A stretch of DNA of 63,169 bases, counting the filler, from an uncultured bacterium (lineage in GTDB: Bacteria; CAZDME01; JAYEMH01): the NCBI GenBank assembly GCA_964506785.1. It is 8 parts of 8 records of this genome, joined end to end, with 100 filler letters (N's around TTAATTAATTAA, not from the genome) between each part and the next. Parts side by side here need not be neighbours in the genome. Positions count along the whole stretch, not along the records: positions 33,446 to 41,042 come from CAZDME010000060.1; 7 more parts are not named here. One strand, given 5' to 3'. Every line of letters starts with the position of its first letter. Position 1 is the first letter of the stretch. The notes under the pieces are model-generated. The model worked only from the letters and a program-made list of their open reading frames with translations, searched no databases and was not told the DNA's origin. This document shows, in pieces, positions 750-56,051 of the stretch. The translations under genes and the position numbers were made by a program.

Positions 750-3681
<2,932 letters not shown>

Positions 3682-3688
3682 ATCTTTA

Positions 3689-4477
3689 TTATTTATTTTG
3701 ATGGAAGGTGTAGACTATAAAGCTTACCACTGTCCCGGCAAACAGGGCAAAAATTGTTATATAGATAACATAGCCGCTTTTACCTAACATAAATTTGGAG
3801 ACTCCCGAGCCTTTTTTTACCTCTTTTTTTAAATTAGAATCTTTTAAATGTGGTGGTGTAATTGTCTCGGGCGCGGTTTTTTCTGCGGGACTGAAAGCGA
3901 TCTCGTAAAGGTTTGACTGAACTGTTTTGATGAATTCCGGATTACCAAGGACAAGAAGCGGTGAAGCAATAGAGCTATTGTATTTTTTTTCTAGTGTTTT
4001 TTGAGAAGGAAGTATTTTGTTTCCCTTTTCATCCAGCCAATATTCGATTTCAGCCTCCTGGTTAAATTTCACCTCGCCAAGGGCTACCTCTTTGCCCGAG
4101 GCATCCTTTTTCACCTCTTTTATTAACCAGCTTTTGGGTTTTCCTTCCTCATCAAATTCCCAGAAGTAACGGGCTTTGATTTCTTTATTTCCGTCCATGT
4201 AATATTGCGGGATACGCTTTTTATCGCAGGCAACAATCCAAACAGTCTGTGTTTTACCCGAGGGATCTTTAATAAGATTAAAAACCCAATAGCCGGTGAT
4301 TTGTTTGGTTTTATCGAATCTCGGATGGAAAAAAATAAAGGGACGCTGCTGGTAAGTTGTCTCAAGAGCCCTCTCCTTGCCCGAGGCAAAGAAAGGGAAA
4401 AAGAGGCAAACAAAAAGGGCGGCTATAATAGAAAAAACCGCCAAATTTTTAGAGAGAAAAAAAGACCTCAAACACAT
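3689..4477 (-). CDS. Exported, C-terminally membrane-anchored protein (pilin cassette A gene 6)
   Basis: N-terminal hydrophobic segment and C-terminal TM helix; paralog of 54822..55577 (shared CDKxxxPQYYMDxNxxxKARYxW and KFMLGxxG...FIVYTFH). Confidence 0.8.
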   Translation of the reverse strand: MCLRSFFLSKNLAVFSIIAALFVCLFFPFFASGKERALETTYQQRPFIFFHPRFDKTKQITGYWVFNLIKDPSGKTQTVWIVACDKKRIPQYYMDGNKEIKARYFWEFDEEGKPKSWLIKEVKKDASGKEVALGEVKFNQEAEIEYWLDEKGNKILPSQKTLEKKYNSSIASPLLVLGNPEFIKTVQSNLYEIAFSPAEKTAPETITPPHLKDSNLKKEVKKGSGVSKFMLGKSGYVIYITIFALFAGTVVSFIVYTFHQNK

Positions 4478-4492
4478 GTGGTTTTAAAAACT

Positions 4493-4654
4493 TTACTCGC
4501 TTTCGCTCTGGGAAGAAACTTCTTCCCATCGGGTAATGCTAATTTCACTAGGAAAAACTAATGTTATTATCTTAGCCCGAACCAAAAAAATCTCCGCGGA
4601 CATCCCCCAGAGAAAAAAAGTTACAAGCAACACTTCGATAATTTTCTTAAACAT
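4493..4654 (-). CDS. 53-aa secreted micro-protein with EISITRWEE motif (cassette A gene 5)
   Basis: ATG at 4654 with GGGAG RBS; signal peptide MFKKII...VRA; paralog of 54630..54815. Confidence 0.75.
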   Translation of the reverse strand: MFKKIIEVLLVTFFLWGMSAEIFLVRAKIITLVFPSEISITRWEEVSSQSESE

Positions 4655-4677
4655 TGCAATCTCCCTTAACCGGTGTG

Positions 4678-6033
4678 TCAATTTTTTGGATGCATGATTG
4701 CCGACTCTGCTTTGTAATTTGCCGTTTTGGCTTCATCAAGCTGCTTATGTACAACCTTGCAAGCCTGAACATATTCGGTGGTGTCAATTATTCCAGCCAT
4801 ATAAGTGTCTTTCAATGACTCAAAAGATTGATATGCATAGTCCTTCTGGGTTTGGTAAACGGAGTTCACAGCCGTTAGCGAGGAAGTATAATCCCAACCG
4901 AATCCCGCCGCCGCATATTCTGTATTTGCTGTTGATACCGTCGCTTTCACGGCACTATCTAATGCGGATATTTTATTAACGGTGCTATCTACATACGTGC
5001 CAATGTCTACTACGGCACTTATGTTTTTATATCCAGCTGTATTTATGTCGTAATAAGTTCCTGTTAAAAGCCCATCCTCTATTGTGACAGAGCCATTAGC
5101 CCCTGACAGGCTGCCCAAAGCGTCTATAAGGGATGAATTATTGTTGCTTGAGACTGTTGTATAACCGGCGATATCAACCTCATCCCACCCCATCATTTCT
5201 CCGGTCTCTGGAGACATTATGCCTAAAGGGTCGCTAGCTTTCAACACAGCTACAGAGTAATCTGCGTTAAAGTCAATTAAATAGGAATTTCCATCACCTA
5301 CATCTACTCCAAGAAAGCTAGCGTCAAACATCGAGTCATCAAGAATTGACTGGGCAACGGTGTTTCCGATCGCGTACATAACAGGAAGAACGGAGTTAAT
5401 ATCCATGCCGGCCGCGAGTAATTCAATAGCCCATGTTCCCATCATCCCCGAAATGAAATTGGAATAATCAGAGTTTTGCAATGCCTCGTCATTTGTAGGG
5501 TTAAGCAGGGCGATATCGTCTGGAACTTGGCCTTCCTCGAAAATTAGTGGTGAGGAACCAGGAAGATGATTTCCGTCATCATCAACCGACCAAACCCCCG
5601 GAACAATTTTTGCTGTTCCTCCTGAATCGCTTGGAATGTACCCATAGAGAGGTGTTGGTAATGTCGGCCGGTAATCTTCCGGAATAGGCAGTTCATCTGG
5701 AAGATCAGGGTCCGGCGAATCATATTGATAGGTGTCTACCGTGAGCCGTACATCTGTTTCTATAGACCGCTCTTTACCCCGGGGGTTTTCTCCTTGAGAG
5801 GCCACCTTAAAGTTTTTATACCGCGTACCCTCTTCTTCTCCGCTGTCCAATTCTATTACCTTAACCGGGATTTCAAAATCGGCCAGGGAGCTGGTGCCTC
5901 CCAATGTAATAGTTGTCTCAACTAATACCGTCTCGGCCTTAGCCGCGCTGGCAAAGAAGAGACAAACTACACAAGCTACGGTTAAACCAAGTACACCGTG
6001 TATGAATTCTTTAATGCCCTTTTTCACTCTCAT
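4678..6033 (-). CDS. 451-aa signal-peptide protein whose N-terminal region resembles a PilX globular domain (cassette A gene 4)
   Basis: Start ATG 6033 with GGAGG RBS (ORF-track start 6150 is too long); signal peptide ending AAKA; FKVASQG...RSIETDV; paralog of 53238..54605. Confidence 0.75.
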   Translation of the reverse strand: MRVKKGIKEFIHGVLGLTVACVVCLFFASAAKAETVLVETTITLGGTSSLADFEIPVKVIELDSGEEEGTRYKNFKVASQGENPRGKERSIETDVRLTVDTYQYDSPDPDLPDELPIPEDYRPTLPTPLYGYIPSDSGGTAKIVPGVWSVDDDGNHLPGSSPLIFEEGQVPDDIALLNPTNDEALQNSDYSNFISGMMGTWAIELLAAGMDINSVLPVMYAIGNTVAQSILDDSMFDASFLGVDVGDGNSYLIDFNADYSVAVLKASDPLGIMSPETGEMMGWDEVDIAGYTTVSSNNNSSLIDALGSLSGANGSVTIEDGLLTGTYYDINTAGYKNISAVVDIGTYVDSTVNKISALDSAVKATVSTANTEYAAAGFGWDYTSSLTAVNSVYQTQKDYAYQSFESLKDTYMAGIIDTTEYVQACKVVHKQLDEAKTANYKAESAIMHPKN

Positions 6034-6078
6034 TTTATTTGCCTCCCTCCCGCTTTTCACCCTTTCATCTCCATAATG

Positions 6079-6108
6079 ATTATACCATAAAGGGAGGGGG
6101 AAAAGCAA
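6079..6108 (-). promoter_or_regulatory. Internal sigma70-type promoter between pilX-N and gene 4
   Basis: TTGCTT-N18-TATAAT with extended TGn; conserved at 53163..53192 in cassette B. Confidence 0.7.
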
Positions 6109-6115
6109 ATTTATT

Positions 6116-6325
6116 TTAGGGGTTGGCCTGTTTGATTTTCCAGAGGCCATACCGGATTCCGGCTTCCGCTAAATAGAAAGATTTAATAGAGTTAATCTCT
6201 TTATCTACGAGCTTACACTCGTTGGTTATTATCGCGAAATATGTCCCTCCGGCCAGGAAGCAAAGAAACATAAAAATTATGGCAAAAATAATTATCATTC
6301 CTTTTTTGGTCTGTTCCGCTCTCAT
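6116..6325 (-). CDS. PilX-like minor pilin, N-terminal helix only (60 aa mature)
   Basis: Class III signal KKG|MIIIF lacking Glu+5 (PilX/GspK trait); SFYLAEAGIRYG; stop after QANP. Confidence 0.8.
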   Translation of the reverse strand: MRAEQTKKGMIIIFAIIFMFLCFLAGGTYFAIITNECKLVDKEINSIKSFYLAEAGIRYGLWKIKQANP

Positions 6326-6385
6326 TTCTCCTTCCCCCGAAGCCAGTTCCCAGAAAATGCAGGCAAAGTCCTTGGCAGCGGATAT

Positions 6386-6904
6386 TCAGTTTCTTTTGTA
6401 GGCAAACGAACTTAAATCGATGCCCTGGTAACCATCCTTGGCATTTATGTCGATTATTCGAATTCGAATGTAACAGGTTGTTAACGAACCGGAAAAAATT
6501 TGGCTTTCGGGCTGAGGCCAGACGTTTTCAAGAAGAACCATTTGCCTGTCAGCATCCGGCCAGCTAGGGAAAAAGATTATCTGGTGTGTTTCAGCATCAT
6601 AGGTATATTTCATCTGGTCAGGAGGGTCTTTTTCTAGGCCGTCCAATTTAACTAAAGCAAGTGTTTTGCCTTCATCGGCTATACTTATCAATTCGCTTTC
6701 CCGTATATTGCGGCATATATGGTTTAAGGCAACCCGGCCCTGGCTCTGTAAGACAATTTGTTTGGAACCTCCACCCCAGCTTCGCTGAACGACTAAATAA
6801 CTAGCAATTAACCCGCCTATCACCAGAGAGGTAATTAAGATAGCCGTTACTATTTCTATTAAAGTCAGCCCGCTTGAGTCAAAGATTTTATTTTTCTTTT
6901 TCAT
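6386..6904 (-). CDS. PilW-like minor pilin
   Basis: SSG|LTLIEIV prepilin motif with Glu+5; long helix ending RVALNHICRNIRES. Confidence 0.8.
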   Translation of the reverse strand: MKKKNKIFDSSGLTLIEIVTAILITSLVIGGLIASYLVVQRSWGGGSKQIVLQSQGRVALNHICRNIRESELISIADEGKTLALVKLDGLEKDPPDQMKYTYDAETHQIIFFPSWPDADRQMVLLENVWPQPESQIFSGSLTTCYIRIRIIDINAKDGYQGIDLSSFAYKRN

Positions 6905-6911
6905 TTTCTTG

Positions 6912-7370
6912 TCAGTTATCTATGTCGCTAATTGCGGAAGCCAATATTTCTGTTTGGGGTTTACCTTTCCATTCCCAGGAAACACTGACAATAATACGCA
7001 GGCCCACTTGCTCTGTTTCTCCAGAGACCATCCAGGGCTCATATTTTATTTCCCGGGTACCTACTAAATCATCTTCATTCGAGTCTACGTCCGGCCCCCT
7101 ATCTATGATTACAGAATCTGATTCATCACCAAGCGCCGCAAGATCATCATAAGTAAATTTAGTCCTTTCTTCAAGAGCCTCCTGGCAAAGATGGATAGCG
7201 CTGAGGCGATGCTTAGCGTTTTTTATCCGGAGGTAGCCAAAGGAAAACATCTGAAACAAGACGGCGAAGGCGGTCAAGGTGAGAAAAATAGCGACTATAC
7301 TTTCAATTAAGGTAACGCCGGATTTGTTTTTAAGGGTGGAGTAGAAACAATATCTTCCCATCTTGTTCAC
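6912..7370 (-). CDS. PilV-like minor pilin
   Basis: KSG|VTLIESIV prepilin motif; AIHLCQEALEE; C-terminal IIVSVSW strand; AGGAGG RBS. Confidence 0.82.
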   Translation of the reverse strand: MNKMGRYCFYSTLKNKSGVTLIESIVAIFLTLTAFAVLFQMFSFGYLRIKNAKHRLSAIHLCQEALEERTKFTYDDLAALGDESDSVIIDRGPDVDSNEDDLVGTREIKYEPWMVSGETEQVGLRIIVSVSWEWKGKPQTEILASAISDIDN

Positions 7371-7447
7371 CGTTCCTCCTTGGTATGGGTAAGGGAAAAT
7401 ACTCTCTGCAAGGGAAGAACCTAATTGGGCTGAGGCAACTGATGAAA

Positions 7448-8819: not shown

Positions 8820-8919
8820 NNNNNNNNNNNNNNNNNNNNNNNNNNNNNNNNNNNNNNNNNNNNTTAATTAATTAANNNNNNNNNNNNNNNNNNNNNNNNN
8901 NNNNNNNNNNNNNNNNNNN
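8820..8919. other. Artificial contig linker 1
   Basis: 100-nt N-run with central TTAATTAATTAA (stops in all six frames). Confidence 0.99.
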
Positions 8920-17220: not shown

Positions 17221-17320
17221 NNNNNNNNNNNNNNNNNNNNNNNNNNNNNNNNNNNNNNNNNNNNTTAATTAATTAANNNNNNNNNNNNNNNNNNNNNNNN
17301 NNNNNNNNNNNNNNNNNNNN
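17221..17320. other. Artificial contig linker 2
   Basis: N-run with TTAATTAATTAA. Confidence 0.99.
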
Positions 17321-25340: not shown

Positions 25341-25440
25341 NNNNNNNNNNNNNNNNNNNNNNNNNNNNNNNNNNNNNNNNNNNNTTAATTAATTAANNNN
25401 NNNNNNNNNNNNNNNNNNNNNNNNNNNNNNNNNNNNNNNN
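25341..25440. other. Artificial contig linker 3
   Basis: N-run with TTAATTAATTAA. Confidence 0.99.
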
Positions 25441-33345: not shown

Positions 33346-33445
33346 NNNNNNNNNNNNNNNNNNNNNNNNNNNNNNNNNNNNNNNNNNNNTTAATTAATTA
33401 ANNNNNNNNNNNNNNNNNNNNNNNNNNNNNNNNNNNNNNNNNNNN
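33346..33445. other. Artificial contig linker 4
   Basis: N-run with TTAATTAATTAA. Confidence 0.99.
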
Positions 33446-33500
33446 TGAGCAAATATACCCTAATCGAGTGGTTTTAAATAGAAAAGGAAAAGAAGTAATT

Positions 33501-33653
33501 TCAGCTAAGCAAATGCATACAGGGAGCTGCAGTTTTACAGAGCAACCCCATATCTCCCCAGACCGTATCACAAACGGCCGAGAGCACTTCTATCTCTTTC
33601 TCATAAACAATTTTAGGCTGGAGATATTTCTTTAAAGTTTTCTTTCTCTCCAT
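33501..33653 (-). CDS. Putative RiPP precursor, 50 aa (not in ORF track)
   Basis: Hand translation MERKKTLKKYLQPKIVYEKEIEVLSAVCDTVWGDMGLLCKTAAPCMHLLS*; GAGGT RBS; starts 1 nt after the rSAM stop; YxxPxI leader motif. Confidence 0.85.
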   Translation of the reverse strand: MERKKTLKKYLQPKIVYEKEIEVLSAVCDTVWGDMGLLCKTAAPCMHLLS

Positions 33654-33654
33654 T

Positions 33655-34686
33655 TTAAGCCACCTCTTTCTCCTTTAGTCTTTCCTCTGTAACTTTTTTC
33701 ACTATTTCAGCTACCTCGCAGGCACGGCTTGATTTCCCCCAGAGATTTCCGTCTTCCATCTGAGCTATTCCATAGCAGCGGCTACAATACGGGATTAAAA
33801 GACATCCCTGGCAGTCACTTAAAAAGCTTATTTTTCTTTTTCGCAATTTCTCTAATAAAGGCGCCCTTTGTAATTTATCAATTGAATCCTCAAGAATATT
33901 ACCAATCTTTTCCCTTATCCCTACACAGGGAAAAACTTCGCCTCCGGGCGAGATAGCGAAATTATTAACTCCGGCGTTACAAAAAAGAGAGTTCGTAGAT
34001 TGGGAAGAAAGGCATTCTAAATTCATCGGCCGGCTGCGGATAAATTCCTCTAAATCTTTACCGGTCAGGCGTTTTTCTATCGGGACTAAAGAACCATCCC
34101 TTCGGGGAGCGATATTAAAATCATAGATAAATTTAGCCTCAAGATTTTGGCTTAATTTTTCCACCTCCTTAAATTCCCCCAAATTTTCCTTTAAAACCAT
34201 ACACTTTAAGGCTATATTTATGTTTTCTTCCTTTAATCTAAAGAGCGCCTTAAAGGTCTTATCGAAGGAACCTTCAACCTGGGTAATCTTATCGTGGGTA
34301 CTGGATTTTATTCCATACAGACTAACCTCAACCGATAAAGGATGGATTTTCTTTATCTCTTTGATTATTTCTTTACTTAGCCGGGTGCCATTAGTAAAAA
34401 TTCTCTGGGCAAAGCCAAGTTTATAGGCAAAGCGGATAATCTCTAAAAAATCCTCCCGGCAGAGAACTTCGCCGCCGCTCCAGATTAAAAATAAAGCATT
34501 AGCCCGCGCCAATGCCGAAAGAATCTCCTTAACCTTCCTTGTGTCCAATTCCTGCTTTCCATCTTCGGGTATTACATAACAATGCTGGCATTTAAGGTTA
34601 CAGCGATAAGTCAACTCCCAATGGATAATGAAAGGAATTTTTTGCTCAATGGTTTTTCCAAAAATTTTACTATAATAATTCACCAT
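33655..34686 (-). CDS. Radical SAM/SPASM peptide maturase
   Basis: CNLKCQHC, SGGE; SPASM CNAG...GEVFPC...CQGCLLIPYCSRC...C. Confidence 0.94.
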   Translation of the reverse strand: MVNYYSKIFGKTIEQKIPFIIHWELTYRCNLKCQHCYVIPEDGKQELDTRKVKEILSALARANALFLIWSGGEVLCREDFLEIIRFAYKLGFAQRIFTNGTRLSKEIIKEIKKIHPLSVEVSLYGIKSSTHDKITQVEGSFDKTFKALFRLKEENINIALKCMVLKENLGEFKEVEKLSQNLEAKFIYDFNIAPRRDGSLVPIEKRLTGKDLEEFIRSRPMNLECLSSQSTNSLFCNAGVNNFAISPGGEVFPCVGIREKIGNILEDSIDKLQRAPLLEKLRKRKISFLSDCQGCLLIPYCSRCYGIAQMEDGNLWGKSSRACEVAEIVKKVTEERLKEKEVA

Positions 34687-34687
34687 T

Positions 34688-35008
34688 TTATTCTTTTACC
34701 TTATCTGCCATTTTCTTGCTAATCAGGACAGCAATGAATTCTTTAGTATCGGTAAGGGCTTTACCCTTTGAAACCTCAAATTTCTGAGTGAGTGCCCGGG
34801 AAATCTCTGAAATTTTATTTTTCCCGTCAATGGCTTCCCAGATAAACGAACCCGCCTCATTTAACACCCTCACCATGCCTGCCTCCGGCAGAACTATCAC
34901 CGCTTCTCCATCAATGATTCTGGAAGCCGCTCCCGGAGATTTCCTGAGCACCGAATTTTCGTCCAAATTCTTTAAAATATGGGGCAATTTATTAAGTTTA
35001 TCAGCCAT
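34688..35008 (-). CDS. PqqD-family RiPP recognition element
   Basis: SRIIDGEAVIV...LNEAGSFIWEAIDG...LTQKFEV...D...FIAVL. Confidence 0.92.
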   Translation of the reverse strand: MADKLNKLPHILKNLDENSVLRKSPGAASRIIDGEAVIVLPEAGMVRVLNEAGSFIWEAIDGKNKISEISRALTQKFEVSKGKALTDTKEFIAVLISKKMADKVKE

Positions 35009-35017
35009 CGGTATAAC

Positions 35018-35046
35018 AGTTTAACAGGGATAGGAAAAGCTGTCAA
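35018..35046 (-). promoter_or_regulatory. sigma70 promoter for the PqqD-rSAM-precursor operon
   Basis: TTGACA-N17-TAAACT with extended TGn. Confidence 0.65.
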
Positions 35047-35064
35047 GGGAAACGGAATCATCTA

Positions 35065-38000
35065 TTAACGGGCGGCTAAGAAAAGCTTGTTGAAAATAAG
35101 GGTTATTTTCTCCATTAATTTCCTAACTGCCTTTCTGACTGCATAAGGCAGTTTCTCAAAATTTTCTTCTGCCATTTCTAATTGCTTTTCCAGGTTTTTC
35201 TTTAAATCTCTATTTTCACGAATTACTTTATCCATTACCTCAGCGGCCGAAATACCTTTTACTTCCTTCTCCATCATCTTCTCATACTTCTCCTTCAGTT
35301 TATTTACGTAAGAAGCAAGCTCTGCTTTGCCCGCTTCCTTAGAATCCGATAAAGATTCCATCTTTTTACCCAGTGATTCTAAAAGCCGGGTCATACCAGA
35401 TTTAGGAGCCAAAGAGGTTTTCCCCTTCTTAGTTGCTTTTTTCTTCCGGGGCTGACGGAGAGAATTCAAAGAATCCTCCGTTTCTTCTTCAGAAATCTCC
35501 TCTTTCTCTTCCGATTCTTCAATAACCGCCGGTTTGGGCTTAACTATCTCATCAATCCTGACTGCCGGGGCCGAAATTTCTCCGGCTCTCTTTGCTTCTC
35601 CAGATATGGCGGAAAGAAAATGTGTCTTGTTTTGTTCATCAAATTCGCGTATAGCCCTGGCAATTCTATCTACGGAAATATCAGGATTCGTTATTTTTTC
35701 CTGTAAGCTTTTTATCTGGTTAAGCTTCTCGGCAACTCTCTGAAGAAGCTGGCTAGCCGCTTTTTTAGCGTCTAAAGTAGGCTTTATCTGTATAGATCTT
35801 ATATACCTTAACTTCTCTTCAACAATTTCAAGAAGGCTTTTAACTTTCTTCTTGGAAGTTGTTTCTTCCTCATTTTCGGCAGGGCTGCTGCTTCCCGCAT
35901 CTTCTTCTTCGCTTTCATCTTCAGGGGCATTAACAACGGTGGTAGAAATATCCCCCAAAGCGGGCTGAGAAATCGGCAGCTCTAAAGCCGGGTCACCAAA
36001 CAAACAATAGGTTTGAATTAAATCTTCGTAGATATTTCCTGTTTCGGCAAAAAGTTTAATCTTGGCCTGGGTGGTAGCCGCTCCCAGGGAACGGTGGTAA
36101 TCCTCAAAAACGGCCTGGAACAGGCCTTGATTTAGCACCCGATGCCCCTGCGGCTCACCCATACCCGTCGGAGACCAGCAGGCAATAGCACCTTTTTCGG
36201 CTGGCAAAAACATTGCTTCAGCCAGACAATCCCCAAAGGGCTGAATAAAGAAACCATTCAGACAATTCATGGTAATGACAAAAGGATACTTTCCCAGATT
36301 ATTGATAGATTCCAGGTGGTAGCTCTGGAAAATGTATTCTGCCGCCCAGATATCAATAGAGCCATGGCCGACGTAATTAAGTATCAAGCTCCCTTTATCG
36401 AACTGCTCAATAATATCTTCGGTGCAAGCCGCCGGCGTCTCATACTGGCTTAGATAAACCTTAGCCGTTTCATAATCAGCCGGCAGGATACTTTGAAGTA
36501 AATCGTTGGTTTCTTCAAACACTGTCTCGTCATTATCCGCCACAAAGACCACCCGTTTTTCCCATCCGGTAAAAGCAGCCGCTTCATAACTAAATATCTT
36601 ATTTACCGCCTGGGTAAGTTCTTCTTCGGTTTTGACCGAAAATCTTCCCAGAAACATATCCGGCAGTAAATCATCCTCGCCATCCAAACAGACAAACCAG
36701 TTATCACTGGCTGTTTCGCCTAAATAGGGAGTAACCATAAGATAAGAGGGCAAGATATTTTTATCCCCCCGTCCCCAATAGTATTTATAGTCATAGGTGG
36801 CATCCCCCACCAAAAGCACATAGGTAGGCGCCGGCTTCAGCCAGTATTTATATGTGAAAGTCAGAAAATCCTTAATGGCATGAGGGGAGGCAATACCAAA
36901 GTTAAACTCATCATAGATATCCTCTAATTTCACTACTTTAACCGCTAATCCCTGGGCCGCTCTTAACTCGGCTAAAGGTAAAATTTCCTCATAAAAAGCC
37001 TCCGGGGTGATAAATAGATAATCAGCCTGTTGAAAGATTACCTGCAGGCTTGACGGTTCATTTTCCTCGATTGCCGCCGCTTCTTTAATCTTATCTTCAG
37101 TTAAAGCCAGGCCTTGAGAAAAGTCAGCGGCAAAATTAAAGGTATGATTAGCGCCTTCAACCTCCACCAGGCTGGGCGCGCCCAAATAAACGGGTGAAAG
37201 GGAATTACTGATATCATAAAGTTTAACCTCTGGTTGACTGAAATTGGAAATCTGGATAGTCGCTTCAGCTTCTGAATTGGTAAAGGCGCATTCATCCTCT
37301 TCAGCCATAAATTTCTTCCAGTACTTTATATCAAAATAGTCAACCAGGATTAAATCATAGGCACAGCCGGTATCCAGCACAGGAAGAATAGTTACGGTAT
37401 TTGTCCCTTCATTAAGATAACTCTGCGGAAAATCTATGGTTAACGTTTGAACCGCGCGCCCGTCCCAGGTAGTTTCAATTAACAGATGGTCATTTAGATA
37501 AAGATAGACATGGTGATTGGGATGCGGCTCAACATCAAAAAATCCCCAGAGAACGATTTCTATCTGCGCCGGATTATCAAGATTCTCCACATCAATGTTA
37601 GCCAGGTTAAATGATATCTCTCCGCCTGAGCCGCCCCAGAAATATTTCTGCCAGAGCCAGCGCTCCTGTTCATTATCGCCGGGTTGCTCGCCCCAATAGA
37701 GGCTGTTCGTTTCCTCGTGGTGGATGGCACCGAAACTATAGAGAGGGGCGCCTAATCCCATCTGGACAGAATTTTCTTCCATCCTTAAACCCTGGCCGTC
37801 AGTATTAACCAGCCAGTAAACATTGGTATCAGTATATTTAGTTTCTTTCTTCTCTCCGTAGAATTCCACATAGTCGCTGGAAGAGAAACTTAGAGAATCA
37901 GCGCTGACCACCCGGATAGCCGTCTCTTCTCCGGATTGGTAGAGTTTAAGTTCAAGAGGATTAATTTGAGAGAGGTCTATGCCGGCCGCTTCTAAATCGG

Positions 38001-40866
38001 CTCCGGTCAGGCGGTAAATGCCGTCTTCCTTGACGGAAATTTTAGCCGCCATTTGGGCAAAACTGGCCTCAGGATTAAGCATCCCACTCCAGCCTTCGGG
38101 GAAACCCTGCCATTCAGCGGCATTGGAATAATTAGCTACCAAGTTCCCGACAATATCCTGAAATTCATCCAGTGTTTCATCGGTAACGATTTCTTCTCCG
38201 CCTTCCTGATAGGTGAATTTGAGTTTAACCTTTATCCGTTTATTCAAGGTTACTTCTTGAATGGCAGAATTATACTGAATTGGCGAGAAAATAATCTGGG
38301 CTACCCGCTGACTGCGCAGGCGGCTGATGGAATTAATATCCGCAACTGCCTCCGGATAAAGGCTGTCTTCAACAATAAGTTCTTCTCCGATAGCCGGGGC
38401 TAAAAGGTAGCCGGAATAGGAGAAGGGTTCAGTCTCCAAAATCTCCAAACTTAAAGAAGCTCTTTGGGGAACAGCTAAGAGAACACCTTTAATCGGCACT
38501 AGAGGGCGATTCTCTTCATTGGTCTCGCCATGAATATATCCGGGCAGGGTAATGCGCTGATAGGTATCTTCACCAACGGTTTTTTCTTCAACTTCAAACC
38601 TTCTGGTATATAATTCTAAGATTATGCCGTCTGCATCTAAAGAAAGAATCTTCACCCCTTCAAAAGCGCCTTCGTCTGTCTGGGTGTTAGTTCTTTCATC
38701 CCGTAAAGGACTGGTCCCGGCCAGAAATTCCTCCAAATTAGTCAAACCGTCATTATCCGGGTCTAAACTGCTGTCGCTCGTGTAAGGGTCAAGGCCGTAA
38801 AACTGCTCCCAGTCATCGGTCATACCGTCACCGTCAGAATCCTGTCCCGGACGGGCCATTACCGGGCCGTAGAATCTGGAAGAACCATTATATTCCACCG
38901 CTTCTAATTTGTAATAATAGATTTCGCCGTTTAAAACGTTGTAGTCGATATATGAATAGGATTTACCGGTAGTGGAATCTCCCAGTCCCGGAATCAAAGC
39001 CCGGTTAATCTTTATATATTCGGTGTTTTCACCCGGGTCAGTGCTTACCCTCTTTCTATAGATGTTGTATCCGGCGCTGTTAACCTCACTGGCGGTTTCC
39101 CAGATAACCTCTACCTTGCCGAAAAGGCCCAGGGCCTTAAACAGGGTTAACTTAACCAGGGTGGGCGTAAACCAATTGAGGGTGTTGCCGCCGTCAGTAG
39201 AATCAGAAGGGTTTATATAAGTGCTGTTTAAATTAGCCGAATTAGAGACGTTGACATAAGAAACACTCCAGGTAGTCGTCCCTGAAGGATAGATTTCCCA
39301 TTTGTCAGTGCCGCTTCCGTCGTAGCGGTCAAGGGTAATTTCGTTACCGGAGGTACCGGTAAGCGTCAAACTATTATCATCTGTGCCGGTTATCTTAGCC
39401 TGCTCCCAGGTTTTAAATTTCAGCGAAGAGCCGGCGGTAGCCGCCGTAAATTTTTCAGTAATAAAGCCATCGGCGAAACTAGCCGTATCGTTAGTAAGAG
39501 TAACCACTAAATGACTCCAGTTAGAACCACCCGAGGTAATTGTGCGTCCCCTAGTCCCATCAATGGTCACGGTTGAAGTGCCGCAGGTAAAGGTTCCAGT
39601 ACTGGTCCAGTCTCCAGCAGTATATATATTGGTGGCGGAAGAATCTGAAGCAAGGGTTCCGGCAAGAATCACATCGCCGTTAATATCCAGGGTAGAGCTA
39701 CTATTAAAAGTTAACTGACCTCCGGAACTGATCGTCAAATCAGGGGGATTGGCCTCACCCTCAAAGGTAATTAAACTGTCGTTGCCGGAATTGTAGGAGG
39801 CTTTAATCCAGGCGGCCGAACGAGAGATGTCAGAAATGCGGACTTCGTCTAATTTGCCATCAAGATATGCGTACCCATTTATATATCCGAGATAGTTATA
39901 CCCATCTGATGTAGCTATAGTACTACCAGAAGTTGTATCTGTTGAACCACTTGTGCCATTTGAAAACGGTGTGCCGGTGTCACCATTCCAATTAAAAGCA
40001 AAATTTCCCCAGCTAGTGGATGCTGTAGATCCTAGTATCAAATCGTTTACACCAGCATTGGTTTCCATATAGAGACTTATTGAAGAGGCAGCATCAACTC
40101 CCCAGACCCACGGAACTCTTTGCCCATCATCACCAAAAGCAATAATTCCTTGATGCCCACTAAATGGCAAACTATCTGCTTTTAACCAAAACTCAATGCA
40201 CATACCATTTTTAGCATTAAGGACTGGGTTAATAGTGATTGTATCACTACTAAAATCCTGCGCATTTCCTATTTGTCCTGATGTGATAACCTGTGGGTTA
40301 TTTGCAGAGCCTTTTGTCCCATCGTTATTATTAGAAGTAGAATCCAGAATGCTGCTTGTGGTATTATCATCCATATGGTAAACCACCTTAAAACTACCAT
40401 CCCAGACATTTTCCGCCGGGGTGGAATTTGTATCCCCTACATAGGTAGTATTATCGGCATGGTCGGAGTCATAATATAGGTAAAGAACGGTATCGCTGCT
40501 ACTGCTTACGCTATTCTCTCCGAACACCTTGACCCAGAGCCAGGCTTTCTCATTGGCATCATCCCACTTTTCAATTTCTACATAACATTGGGATAGACCA
40601 TCGGATTTAGTTACGGCTATTTTCTTGCGGTTGGCATCGGCCGTCAGCTCATCAAAAACGCAGGATACATCGACATCGCCGATACCAGAGGCGGCACTAA
40701 GATAGACCAAAACCGGGAAATCAGATAAATTTGCATCAACCTTGCTACTGTCAATGGTTAATCTGATCCGCTGGTCCCATCCAGGAAGCCAGTCCGCTTC
40801 TGCCGGAGAAGCCGCCAGCAATATAAAACCAACACAAATTGTCAATCCAACTACCCGCTTAATCAT
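35065..40866 (-). CDS. 1933-aa secreted multidomain C25 (gingipain-like) cysteine peptidase
   Basis: Signal peptide; DUF2341-like and LamG-like (DEVRIS) N-terminus; DSDGDG/DPDNDG Ca-binding repeats; DIYDEF, YVLLVGD, YVGHGS and MNCLNG catalytic dyad, LFGDPAL; charged helical tail. Confidence 0.9.
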   Translation of the reverse strand: MIKRVVGLTICVGFILLAASPAEADWLPGWDQRIRLTIDSSKVDANLSDFPVLVYLSAASGIGDVDVSCVFDELTADANRKKIAVTKSDGLSQCYVEIEKWDDANEKAWLWVKVFGENSVSSSSDTVLYLYYDSDHADNTTYVGDTNSTPAENVWDGSFKVVYHMDDNTTSSILDSTSNNNDGTKGSANNPQVITSGQIGNAQDFSSDTITINPVLNAKNGMCIEFWLKADSLPFSGHQGIIAFGDDGQRVPWVWGVDAASSISLYMETNAGVNDLILGSTASTSWGNFAFNWNGDTGTPFSNGTSGSTDTTSGSTIATSDGYNYLGYINGYAYLDGKLDEVRISDISRSAAWIKASYNSGNDSLITFEGEANPPDLTISSGGQLTFNSSSTLDINGDVILAGTLASDSSATNIYTAGDWTSTGTFTCGTSTVTIDGTRGRTITSGGSNWSHLVVTLTNDTASFADGFITEKFTAATAGSSLKFKTWEQAKITGTDDNSLTLTGTSGNEITLDRYDGSGTDKWEIYPSGTTTWSVSYVNVSNSANLNSTYINPSDSTDGGNTLNWFTPTLVKLTLFKALGLFGKVEVIWETASEVNSAGYNIYRKRVSTDPGENTEYIKINRALIPGLGDSTTGKSYSYIDYNVLNGEIYYYKLEAVEYNGSSRFYGPVMARPGQDSDGDGMTDDWEQFYGLDPYTSDSSLDPDNDGLTNLEEFLAGTSPLRDERTNTQTDEGAFEGVKILSLDADGIILELYTRRFEVEEKTVGEDTYQRITLPGYIHGETNEENRPLVPIKGVLLAVPQRASLSLEILETEPFSYSGYLLAPAIGEELIVEDSLYPEAVADINSISRLRSQRVAQIIFSPIQYNSAIQEVTLNKRIKVKLKFTYQEGGEEIVTDETLDEFQDIVGNLVANYSNAAEWQGFPEGWSGMLNPEASFAQMAAKISVKEDGIYRLTGADLEAAGIDLSQINPLELKLYQSGEETAIRVVSADSLSFSSSDYVEFYGEKKETKYTDTNVYWLVNTDGQGLRMEENSVQMGLGAPLYSFGAIHHEETNSLYWGEQPGDNEQERWLWQKYFWGGSGGEISFNLANIDVENLDNPAQIEIVLWGFFDVEPHPNHHVYLYLNDHLLIETTWDGRAVQTLTIDFPQSYLNEGTNTVTILPVLDTGCAYDLILVDYFDIKYWKKFMAEEDECAFTNSEAEATIQISNFSQPEVKLYDISNSLSPVYLGAPSLVEVEGANHTFNFAADFSQGLALTEDKIKEAAAIEENEPSSLQVIFQQADYLFITPEAFYEEILPLAELRAAQGLAVKVVKLEDIYDEFNFGIASPHAIKDFLTFTYKYWLKPAPTYVLLVGDATYDYKYYWGRGDKNILPSYLMVTPYLGETASDNWFVCLDGEDDLLPDMFLGRFSVKTEEELTQAVNKIFSYEAAAFTGWEKRVVFVADNDETVFEETNDLLQSILPADYETAKVYLSQYETPAACTEDIIEQFDKGSLILNYVGHGSIDIWAAEYIFQSYHLESINNLGKYPFVITMNCLNGFFIQPFGDCLAEAMFLPAEKGAIACWSPTGMGEPQGHRVLNQGLFQAVFEDYHRSLGAATTQAKIKLFAETGNIYEDLIQTYCLFGDPALELPISQPALGDISTTVVNAPEDESEEEDAGSSSPAENEEETTSKKKVKSLLEIVEEKLRYIRSIQIKPTLDAKKAASQLLQRVAEKLNQIKSLQEKITNPDISVDRIARAIREFDEQNKTHFLSAISGEAKRAGEISAPAVRIDEIVKPKPAVIEESEEKEEISEEETEDSLNSLRQPRKKKATKKGKTSLAPKSGMTRLLESLGKKMESLSDSKEAGKAELASYVNKLKEKYEKMMEKEVKGISAAEVMDKVIRENRDLKKNLEKQLEMAEENFEKLPYAVRKAVRKLMEKITLIFNKLFLAAR

Positions 40867-40888
40867 TTTGAATCACCCTGCTTACTTC

Positions 40889-40919
40889 AAAAACTTGCAC
40901 CTCGTAGGTGCAAGTTTTT
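40889..40919. terminator. Perfect 14-bp inverted repeat (bidirectional terminator or REP-like)
   Basis: AAAAACTTGCACCT-CGT-AGGTGCAAGTTTTT. Confidence 0.7.
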
Positions 40920-41041
40920 TAAGGATTTATGGTTAATTTAGAGCTATTGTCAATGGTCGCCTCTCCATCACTGCTTATAATAACCCCGAAATTAGATGGA
41001 GTAAAATTTCTTGTCTCTGGGGCCCAGGCATTATCATTTCC
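40919..41041 (-). CDS. C-terminal fragment of an upstream gene
   Basis: Open frame GNDNAWAPETRNFTPSNFGVIISSDGEATIDNSSKLTINP* from the contig edge. Confidence 0.55.
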   Translation of the reverse strand, partial: GNDNAWAPETRNFTPSNFGVIISSDGEATIDNSSKLTINP

Positions 41042-41042
41042 T

Positions 41043-41142
41043 NNNNNNNNNNNNNNNNNNNNNNNNNNNNNNNNNNNNNNNNNNNNTTAATTAATTAANN
41101 NNNNNNNNNNNNNNNNNNNNNNNNNNNNNNNNNNNNNNNNNN
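41043..41142. other. Artificial contig linker 5
   Basis: N-run with TTAATTAATTAA. Confidence 0.99.
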
Positions 41143-48575: not shown

Positions 48576-48675
48576 NNNNNNNNNNNNNNNNNNNNNNNNN
48601 NNNNNNNNNNNNNNNNNNNTTAATTAATTAANNNNNNNNNNNNNNNNNNNNNNNNNNNNNNNNNNNNNNNNNNNN
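48576..48675. other. Artificial contig linker 6
   Basis: N-run with TTAATTAATTAA. Confidence 0.99.
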
Positions 48676-55951: not shown

Positions 55952-56051
55952 NNNNNNNNNNNNNNNNNNNNNNNNNNNNNNNNNNNNNNNNNNNNTTAAT
56001 TAATTAANNNNNNNNNNNNNNNNNNNNNNNNNNNNNNNNNNNNNNNNNNNN
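55952..56051. other. Artificial contig linker 7
   Basis: N-run with TTAATTAATTAA. Confidence 0.99.

Follow-up and report, generated by a model that had tools for sequence, protein, structure and literature searches.

What does a bacterium make with three genes, packed end to end, that encode a PqqD-family protein, a radical S-adenosylmethionine (SAM) enzyme with a SPASM domain and a peptide of 50 residues? The question is raised by a stretch of DNA of 63,169 nucleotides, filler included (the window), from the genome of an uncultured bacterium (GenBank assembly GCA_964506785.1). The window consists of eight contigs chained by N44-TTAATTAATTAA-N44 linkers (8820–8919, 17221–17320, 25341–25440, 33346–33445, 41043–41142, 48576–48675 and 55952–56051). 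It is not one molecule, and therefore genes across a linker are not genomic neighbours. The three genes lie together on the piece 33446–41042, which is contig C60 (CAZDME010000060.1) of a 1.38-Mb genome (112 contigs, 91% complete) and carries four minus-strand open reading frames (ORFs) of 1933, 106, 343 and 50 amino acids. The closest named relative of the Pta protein of this genome (70% identity) gives a slight hint that the bacterium may be a member of the 'Candidatus Ratteibacteria' lineage. The three shorter ORFs are likely to form the recognition and core-modification part of a pathway for a peptide that is made on the ribosome and modified after translation (RiPP), of an uncharacterised, widespread family.

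The gene of the PqqD-family protein (34688–35008, minus strand) is followed by that of the radical SAM/SPASM enzyme (33655–34686, minus strand) and by the small ORF (33501–33653, minus strand), the stop codon of which occupies 33501–33503. Gaps of one base separate the PqqD stop codon from the start of the enzyme gene and the stop codon of the enzyme gene from the start of the small ORF. A Shine–Dalgarno-like GAGGTG (33661–33666, minus strand) is located within the end of the enzyme gene, 7 nt before the ATG of the small ORF. A previous sequence-only reading of this DNA had proposed the three ORFs as a RiPP operon. They are present on the minus strand at the coordinates given there, the 50-residue translation is exactly the same, and the tight coupling claimed for the small ORF is borne out by the one-base gap. 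The operon is identical across contigs of four sequencing runs, with zero base differences inside it.

The 106-residue protein matches the PqqD family in a Pfam search (PF05402, 2.2e-14), in agreement with its earlier assignment as a RiPP recognition element (RRE). Its NCBIfam matches, to PqqD (36.4 against a cut-off of 46), ScmD (33.4 against 100), GeoRSP PqqD (20.4 against 100) and the lasso PqqD model, are weak and all under cut-off. A PqqD gene adjoins the radical SAM gene in 134 of 160 related loci (their selection is described below). Three homologues of about 455 residues (P0034, P0036 and P0052) have PqqD fused to the radical SAM/SPASM enzyme, and because such fusions exist, the RRE and the enzyme probably act as one unit in this family.

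The small ORF is more than a chance reading frame. The loci sampled around homologues of the radical SAM enzyme comprise 80 from a genome collection (the best 80 of 563 confirmed among 612 candidate stretches) and 80 from metagenomes (the best 80 of 578 confirmed among 612 candidate stretches), with flanks of at most 3 kb and many contigs cut. When the 50-residue peptide was used by itself in a tblastn search, 15 other loci gave small frames at E ≤ 1e-3, every one on the strand of the radical SAM gene and nearly all just 3' of it. An iterated profile, run over the 18,775 stop-to-stop frames of the 160 loci, returned 130 rows at E ≤ 0.01, every one of them on the strand of the radical SAM gene. 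To the family set that was included, 117 of the 160 loci contribute 120 peptides; all are encoded on the strand of the radical SAM gene, 69 of them downstream and 51 upstream of it, so that a conserved small ORF does accompany the homologues of this enzyme. In one locus (L109, 1252–1974), three tandem family precursor genes are found downstream of a single radical SAM gene.

The 50-residue peptide is predicted to be a precursor with a leader of residues 1–23 (33585–33653, minus strand) and a core of residues 24–50 (LSAVCDTVWGDMGLLCKTAAPCMHLLS; 33504–33584, minus strand). The leader has a Lys-rich N-terminus, a Y10-x-x-P13-x-I15 motif and the tripeptide I21-E22-V23 at its end, whereas the core carries Cys28, Cys39, Cys45, Trp32 and the C-terminal Ser50. 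In an alignment of 109 peptides (that of the window and 108 of the 120; eleven without a usable start codon or with a long spurious extension and one exact duplicate were omitted), Pro13, Cys28 and Cys39 never vary, and at least 90% of the sequences have Met1 and Tyr10. The leader stretch of the window, Y-L-Q-P-K-I-V-Y-E-K-E-I-E-V, is thus of the YxxPxL/I type that had been read from the sequence (YxxPxI here), with a nearly invariant Tyr and an invariant Pro. The Tyr of this motif precedes the first Cys by 18 residues in 106 of 121 peptides. Among the 119 peptides with a YxxP motif, 90 have two core cysteines, 23 have three and six have four; the spacing of the first two is 10 in 66 of them and 11 in the window. 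Of 120 peptides, 96 end in Ser. I21-E22-V23 occupies the place of an F-E-T motif found in the family. Because the leader of LppA, the precursor of the linear polyphosphorylated peptides (LPPs) compared below, ends in F-E-T (PMC13381572), cleavage probably takes place after I-E-V, which would move the leader/core boundary two or three residues upstream of the one first proposed, after L-S-A.

The family extends far beyond the sampled loci. Its profile matches 1510 of 1.84 billion representative proteins at E ≤ 0.001 and 237 at E ≤ 1e-10. The best 150 database representatives all end in Ser, and 149 of them have the 18-residue register and a core of the C-G-K type. Members are seen in metagenome-assembled genomes (MAGs) labelled Acidobacteriota, Omnitrophota, Chloroflexota, Planctomycetota, Nitrospirae, Patescibacteria and others. 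In the 1.38-Mb genome, the small ORF of the window is the sole match to the profile at E ≤ 1. The peptide exists as a called protein (P0391) on six contigs, one of them 88 kb in length, and a word-index search with it returned only the peptide itself. The core had not been recognised as that of a characterised family, and indeed the 109 peptides have no family match in Pfam or NCBIfam, where only single chance-level hits appear (E 0.002–0.009).

The 343-residue protein contains a Radical_SAM domain (PF04055, 1.1e-20) and a SPASM domain (PF13186, 4.4e-07), as had been recognised previously. Its CX3CX2C motif is formed by Cys29, Cys33 and Cys36, and its seven SPASM cysteines (residues 236, 254, 292, 295, 301, 304 and 323) are 100% conserved across the 26 members of its clade. 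At position 243, where 60% of the wider family has a Cys, the window has Phe and the clade never has Cys. The seven cysteines that are left to supply two auxiliary clusters fit one with an open site. In the ranthipeptide maturase CteB, the open site of an auxiliary cluster binds a substrate cysteine. A profile built from 30 homologues and compared with solved structures finds SkfB, which forms thioethers, first (3.7e-31), followed by PqqE, CteB, TigE, SuiB and anSME; the nearest solved relatives are thus maturases of peptides. An AlphaFold2 model of the enzyme (pLDDT 91.0, pTM 0.88) gives a similar answer in Foldseek, with SkfB first and SuiB, TigE, CteB, anSME and PqqE also among the nearest structures. 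The modelled fold is that of a peptide-modifying SPASM/twitch enzyme, from which the chemistry is not readable. The closest database enzymes (P0002–P0005) are 68–71% identical to that of the window; close kin were not found among 61 genomes searched, where the best identity is 36%. A second, distant radical SAM/SPASM-like gene is found in the same genome (G000:C25:15469-16311, minus strand, in locus L002, G000:C25:13969-17811; 27% identity, E 4.9e-5).

Enzyme and peptide vary together. In a tree of 168 radical SAM sequences (160 from the loci, that of the window and seven database proteins), the enzyme of the window and P0002–P0005 fall within a clade of 26 with a support of 0.996. Every locus of this clade in which a peptide was detected has a C-[DNS]-[ST] core with three or four cysteines, in which the second Cys is found at +9 to +12 and the third at +15 to +19 from the first. 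A Trp is located four residues after the first Cys in 12 of the 17 peptides of the clade. Other clades have C-G-K cores (mostly Acidobacteriota MAGs) or C-P-T cores. The strongest case at hand for an enzyme acting on the core, and for a role of the cysteines, comes from this co-variation of clade and core together with the fixed register between Tyr and the first Cys.

The genes that surround the cassette in its relatives suggest what else the pathway may contain. In total, 98 ORFs of 14 relatives, out of 106 called in 15 loci, were compared with Pfam, and 24 of them also with NCBIfam; the eight ORFs of the remaining locus, L096, were left out as duplicates of those in L095. The recurring gene order begins, in some loci, with a C25 peptidase and continues with an HprK-related, ScmC-like kinase of about 275 residues (weak matches), PqqD, the radical SAM/SPASM enzyme, the peptide, an S24 peptidase of about 155 residues, a PF14907 nucleotidyltransferase and the genes of an ABC-2 permease and its ATPase. 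The S24 peptidase of the relatives matches the archaeal-type signal peptidase I (TIGR02228, 46–66 bits) and SipW. The kinase-like proteins, including one encoded elsewhere in the genome of the window (contig C23, see below), match ScmC (up to 39.9 against a cut-off of 125) and HprK_rel_A/B weakly. Counted over the 160 loci with hidden Markov models made from the proteins of these relatives, PqqD is present in 134, the kinase in 119, S24 in 78, PF14907 in 43, ABC-2 in 27 and C25 in 8. The sequence-only reading had thus captured the core trio and missed the kinase, the SipW-like peptidase, the PF14907 protein, the ABC-2 exporter and the C25 neighbour. An Omnitrophota single-cell genome (L022, 1279–6743) has three radical SAM/SPASM genes in a row, one of them fused to PqqD, as well as two discrete PqqD genes, an S24 peptidase and a kinase-like gene; a precursor was not found there with the family profile.

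In the genome of the window, such genes are located on other contigs. One operon of contig C23 (L163, G000:C23:8000-19831, 3928–7408) encodes an HprK/ScmC-like protein, an ABC ATPase, an ABC-2 permease and a PF14907 protein. Its ATPase and permease are 54% and 47% identical, respectively, to those of relative L085. The operon is flanked by type II secretion/pilus genes on one side and by polysaccharide-export genes of the Wza, Wzz and Wzy types on the other and contains neither a PqqD/RRE gene nor a precursor. Contig C16 (L164, G000:C16:2000-11000, 3204–6264) has a SipW-like S24 peptidase next to a 408-residue PF14907 protein. It also carries a second, divergent PqqD of 125 residues beside a polysaccharide deacetylase, and no family precursor was detected there. 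Another S24 gene is found on contig C20. Since the genome holds a single family precursor and the C23 operon has no RRE or precursor of its own, the C23 and C16 genes most likely serve the peptide of the window in trans.

Taken together, these elements outline how the pathway might work. The leader of the 50-residue precursor would be bound, through Y10-x-x-P13-x-I15, by the discrete PqqD-type RRE, which would present the core to the radical SAM/SPASM enzyme with Cys28 held at a fixed register, 18 residues past the Tyr. The enzyme would abstract a hydrogen with a 5'-deoxyadenosyl radical and use a SPASM auxiliary cluster with one free coordination site, so that Cys28, Cys39 and Cys45 might become joined to carbons of other core residues in sactionine- or ranthionine-type thioethers. 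The HprK-like kinase would be expected to phosphorylate the C-terminal Ser, here Ser50, and the SipW-like signal peptidase would act as an RRE-dependent leader peptidase with an expected cut after I-E-V23. The PF14907 nucleotidyltransferase and the ABC-2 exporter may complete the toolkit, to which a secreted C25/PorU-like protease is often adjacent in the relatives. The kinase, ABC and nucleotidyltransferase genes next to the polysaccharide-export genes would act on the peptide from their own contig. As far as can be judged from the sequence, the product is most likely a Cys-cross-linked peptide, trimmed and possibly phosphorylated at Ser50 by enzymes that are encoded elsewhere in the genome. 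The thioether chemistry by itself has a little less than an even chance of being correct.

A number of observations weigh against this reading. The NCBIfam models of thioether maturases all fail on the enzyme (StsB 100.7 against a cut-off of 625, AlbA 86.2 against 850, SkfB 73.6 against 300 and PapB 58.1 against 340), and the top NCBIfam scores are those of heme-d1/heme-b enzymes, to the radical SAM half only (NirJ2, 127 against 500); no NCBIfam equivalog reaches its cut-off. SuiB, anSME and PqqE resemble the enzyme in fold about as closely as SkfB and CteB do. The family as a whole offers no conserved residue to be named as the acceptor, and the two invariant cysteines might just be bonded to each other as a disulfide, with the enzyme active at another site. 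In the clade of the window, only 12 of the 17 peptides end in Ser or Thr, so that C-terminal phosphorylation would not be universal even there. No kinase gene adjoins PqqD in the window, unlike in 119 of the 160 relatives, and contig C60 of this fragmented, 91% complete genome has no SipW-like peptidase or transferase gene, which makes action in trans an assumption. Finally, the promoter proposed upstream of the operon is a good-looking candidate site rather than a proven one. The sequence TTGACA-17-TG-n-TAAACT (35018–35046, minus strand), in the 56-nt gap upstream of the PqqD gene, has 10 of 12 matches to the −35/−10 consensus and a TG before the −10 element, but the region contains no more promoter-like sites than shuffled sequences do (4 against 3.8 ± 2.1). 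Because the site ends 9 nt before the PqqD start codon, a transcript made from it would be nearly leaderless.

The points that concern the enzyme are those on which a different chemistry within the same RiPP module could be argued. The enzyme might form a C–C or C–O cross-link (at Trp32 or another residue), epimerise a residue or oxidise a cysteine in the manner of anSME, in which case the invariant cysteines would be paired in a disulfide or would act as ligands of a cluster while catalysis proceeds. Such chemistry is known in the fold neighbourhood, as SuiB makes a Lys-Trp C–C link. The nearness in fold of SuiB, anSME and PqqE, the failure of every sacti- and ranthipeptide maturase model to reach its cut-off, the Trp kept at the fourth position after the first Cys in 12 of 17 clade peptides and the lack of an evident acceptor are all compatible with this. 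Set against them, the two cysteines are the only core residues that are invariant throughout the family, Trp is absent from the majority C-G-K class, and SkfB is top by both profile and fold. We regard a non-thioether chemistry as unlikely, with enough in its favour to be kept in view.

One member of this group of chemistries had been put forward explicitly, a cyclophane formed by W-G-D in the core. A three-residue cyclophane (triceptide) is made on a conserved aromatic-X-X motif, the third residue of which provides the beta-carbon for the cross-link. Among the 12 clade peptides with this Trp, W-x-x ends in Gly in seven, and a three-residue cyclophane is therefore excluded in those seven. Five of the 17 clade peptides have no Trp at all, and in the majority C-G-K class it occurs in none. 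The W-G-D cyclophane is thus disfavoured.

The heme-enzyme scores, in turn, could be taken as a sign that the small ORF is not the substrate and that the PqqD protein and the enzyme act on another protein, for example the C25/PorU-like one, or on a small molecule, with the small ORF encoding a conserved accessory or regulatory peptide. The recurrence of C25 proteins beside the cassette would agree with that. The tetrapyrrole matches, however, cover only residues 20–216 and reach a quarter of the cut-off scores, on which grounds membership in the NirJ/AhbD (heme-d1/heme-b synthase) group was rejected. Moreover, the peptide carries a published type of RRE-binding motif at a fixed register to the first Cys, the clades of the enzyme co-vary with the type of core, and 117 of the 160 loci have the peptide as compared to eight with C25. 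We find it scarcely credible that the peptide is not the substrate.

The dispersal of the accessory genes leads to another question, namely whether the three-gene module is a stranded or decaying remnant, cut off from its kinase, peptidase, transferase and exporter and without a mature product. The interval from the C25 gene to PqqD lacks the kinase gene that 119 of the 160 relatives have, and the S24 and PF14907 genes are not on contig C60. On the other hand, all three ORFs are intact, with their catalytic and cluster cysteines, a ribosome-binding site and 1-nt spacing, and locus L099 displays the same kinase-less order (C25, PqqD, peptide, radical SAM, S24). The kinase, ABC, ABC-2 and PF14907 genes of contig C23 are likewise intact and orthologous to those of the relatives. 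Contig C60 ends at 33446, 55 nt past the stop codon of the small ORF, and the contigs of other runs continue beyond this point. Decay of the module is, in our estimation, very improbable.

That the cluster would continue past the contig end had been anticipated, and it agrees both with the genes that relatives carry downstream of the precursor and with the contigs from three other public runs that extend beyond the end of C60, one of which is 13.7 kb long and reaches 6.3 kb further. Thirty letters of these extensions read, on the minus strand, as an ATG followed by codons of hydrophobic residues. The final 32 bases of contig C60 (33447–33478) differ from those of the three other runs, the divergence beginning from 33479, and several assemblies break at 33479–33497. 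Divergence and assembly breaks just after the precursor gene suggest strain variation or a misjoined contig end.

The co-oriented neighbour of PqqD on its upstream side is the C25/PorU-like protein of 1933 residues (35065–40866, minus strand). It contains a Peptidase_C25 domain (residues 1283–1630, 2.9e-94), Propeptide_C25, Laminin_G_3 and a PorU-like region (residues 940–1646, 287 bits against a cut-off of 420), and it is 41% identical over 561 residues to the C25 protein of locus L095. Its N-terminus resembles a signal peptide; DUF2341/Laminin_G_3, a TSP3 repeat and a Lys/Glu-rich tail of about 300 residues are further parts of its architecture. C25/PorU-like genes recur beside the cassette in other phyla, where they may serve to process the leader or the product or to attach it to the surface. 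In the 160 loci, all eight C25 genes are co-oriented with the cassette, and four of the eight belong to the clade of the window.

This neighbour and the surroundings of the C23 operon allow for a more far-reaching idea, which we consider rather improbable: the product of the cassette might be no antibiotic but an envelope-associated peptide of a new class. Such a peptide would be short and Cys-stapled by a new type of SPASM cross-link, which might involve the conserved Cys-Asp/Asn-Thr/Ser or Trp positions. Its last Ser would be phosphorylated and perhaps glycosylated, and after export through the ABC-2 system it would be handed to the secreted PorU-like C25 transpeptidase encoded alongside or to the polysaccharide-export machinery. 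If this were true, the peptide could be a primer, an anchor or a regulator of surface polymer assembly, and its role would account for the occurrence of the toolkit in exopolysaccharide and capsule loci and beside giant C25 surface proteins in several phyla.

Whatever its product, the cassette can be placed among systems already described, and its accessory genes are most reminiscent of the LPP clusters of Bacillota (lppA-K-B-S-D-N; Popov et al., Nat Commun 2026, PMC13381572). According to that paper, the LPP core set consists of an SpI-like peptidase, a stand-alone RRE, an HprK-like kinase, a nucleoside triphosphate (NTP) transferase and an exporter. The leader has the consensus YxxPxVLxHQxIxFETxxS, the kinase phosphorylates, and the SpI-like protein, a SipW homologue, cleaves in an RRE-dependent manner after F-E-T. 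The clusters are often found within capsular polysaccharide loci. The likeness covers the discrete PqqD-type RRE, the YxxPx[IVF] leader followed by a hydrophobic-Glu-Thr/Val motif, the contiguous genes for an HprK-like kinase, a SipW-like archaeal-type signal peptidase, an NTP transferase and an exporter in the relatives of the window, and the placement in a polysaccharide locus, which is that of the kinase/ABC/PF14907 operon on contig C23. Of the LPP core set, contig C60 itself has only the RRE; the kinase, ABC, ABC-2 and PF14907 genes are on C23, and S24 with another PF14907 gene on C16. The differences are equally clear. The terms 'radical SAM', 'rSAM' and 'SPASM' have no occurrences in the text of PMC13381572, and LPP products are described there as linear, whereas here a radical SAM/SPASM enzyme is coupled to the precursor and the invariant cysteines are central. 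The F-E-T-like motif of the window is two residues nearer to the Tyr than in the published LPP consensus. The exporter is of the ABC-2 type here and MsbA-like in the LPP clusters as they are described, and the phyla are different.

Phosphorylated lasso peptides provide a second parallel. According to the review PMC9266682, the C-terminal Ser of lasso precursors is a target of HprK-type kinases, and the phosphoserine is decorated by an enzyme with a nucleotidyltransferase fold. The clusters described there (paeninodin with PadeK, pseudomycoidin with PsmK and PsmN) share with the cassette the YxxP leader, a discrete PqqD-type B1 protein, an HprK-type kinase for a conserved C-terminal Ser and a nucleotidyltransferase-fold enzyme. 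Unlike them, neither the window nor the relatives examined have a lasso cyclase (C) or a B2 protease, and the part of the class-defining enzyme falls to a radical SAM/SPASM enzyme.

Among solved structures, the enzyme itself is closest to SkfB (PDB id: 6efn) and CteB (PDB ids: 5wgg and 5why), with which it shares the radical SAM and SPASM/twitch fold, a precursor with a short Cys-bearing core and seven SPASM cysteines. It differs from sacti- and ranthipeptide maturases in that its scores are far below the family cut-offs and its RRE is a separate protein rather than an N-terminal domain, and none of the models searched relates its precursor to SkfA, SCIFF or PapA. The combination of an HprK-related protein, a PqqD-family chaperone and radical SAM/SPASM enzymes is also that of the SynChlorMet (ScmC/D/E/F), HPr-rel-A and GeoRSP systems of NCBIfam. 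All scores here are under cut-off (for the enzyme, ScmE 97.8, GeoRSP radical SAM 85.9 and ScmF 72.2, each against 400), and these systems are themselves uncharacterised; SynChlorMet was not found in open-access papers or bioRxiv. Pyrroloquinoline quinone (PqqA/D/E) and mycofactocin (MftA/B/C) are made from a similar trio of a small precursor, a discrete PqqD-type chaperone and a radical SAM/SPASM enzyme. PqqA contains a Glu/Tyr pair and MftA a C-terminal Val-Tyr, neither of which is present in the precursor of the window. Membership in either system was rejected on the scores of MftC (101.8 against 265, aligned over residues 17–302), PqqE (80.2 against 381) and PqqD (36.4 against 46) and on the unrelated, Cys-based core.

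In the open-access and bioRxiv literature, no paper was found that joins a radical SAM enzyme to the toolkit of PqqD, HprK-like kinase, SipW-like peptidase and nucleotidyltransferase or that links PqqD and a radical SAM enzyme to a gingipain, and for PF14907 only an unrelated phosphonate paper came up. Passages of a survey of biosynthetic gene clusters (PMC9902471) contain nothing specific to this cassette. Neither in this literature nor in Pfam and NCBIfam was a match to a characterised family found. RRE-guided maturation of a peptide by a radical SAM/SPASM enzyme is a known kind of pathway; the precursor family is absent from the curated models and from the literature searched. It was in 2026 that the LPP-type toolkit (kinase, SipW-like peptidase, nucleotidyltransferase) received its first characterisation. 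The three-gene module is compact and, together with the kinase and the peptidase of the same genome, directly testable by co-expression. Identification of its product could explain why the cassette is placed in polysaccharide loci and beside PorU-like proteases, and would establish a RiPP class of its own, probably along with a SPASM chemistry of a new variety.

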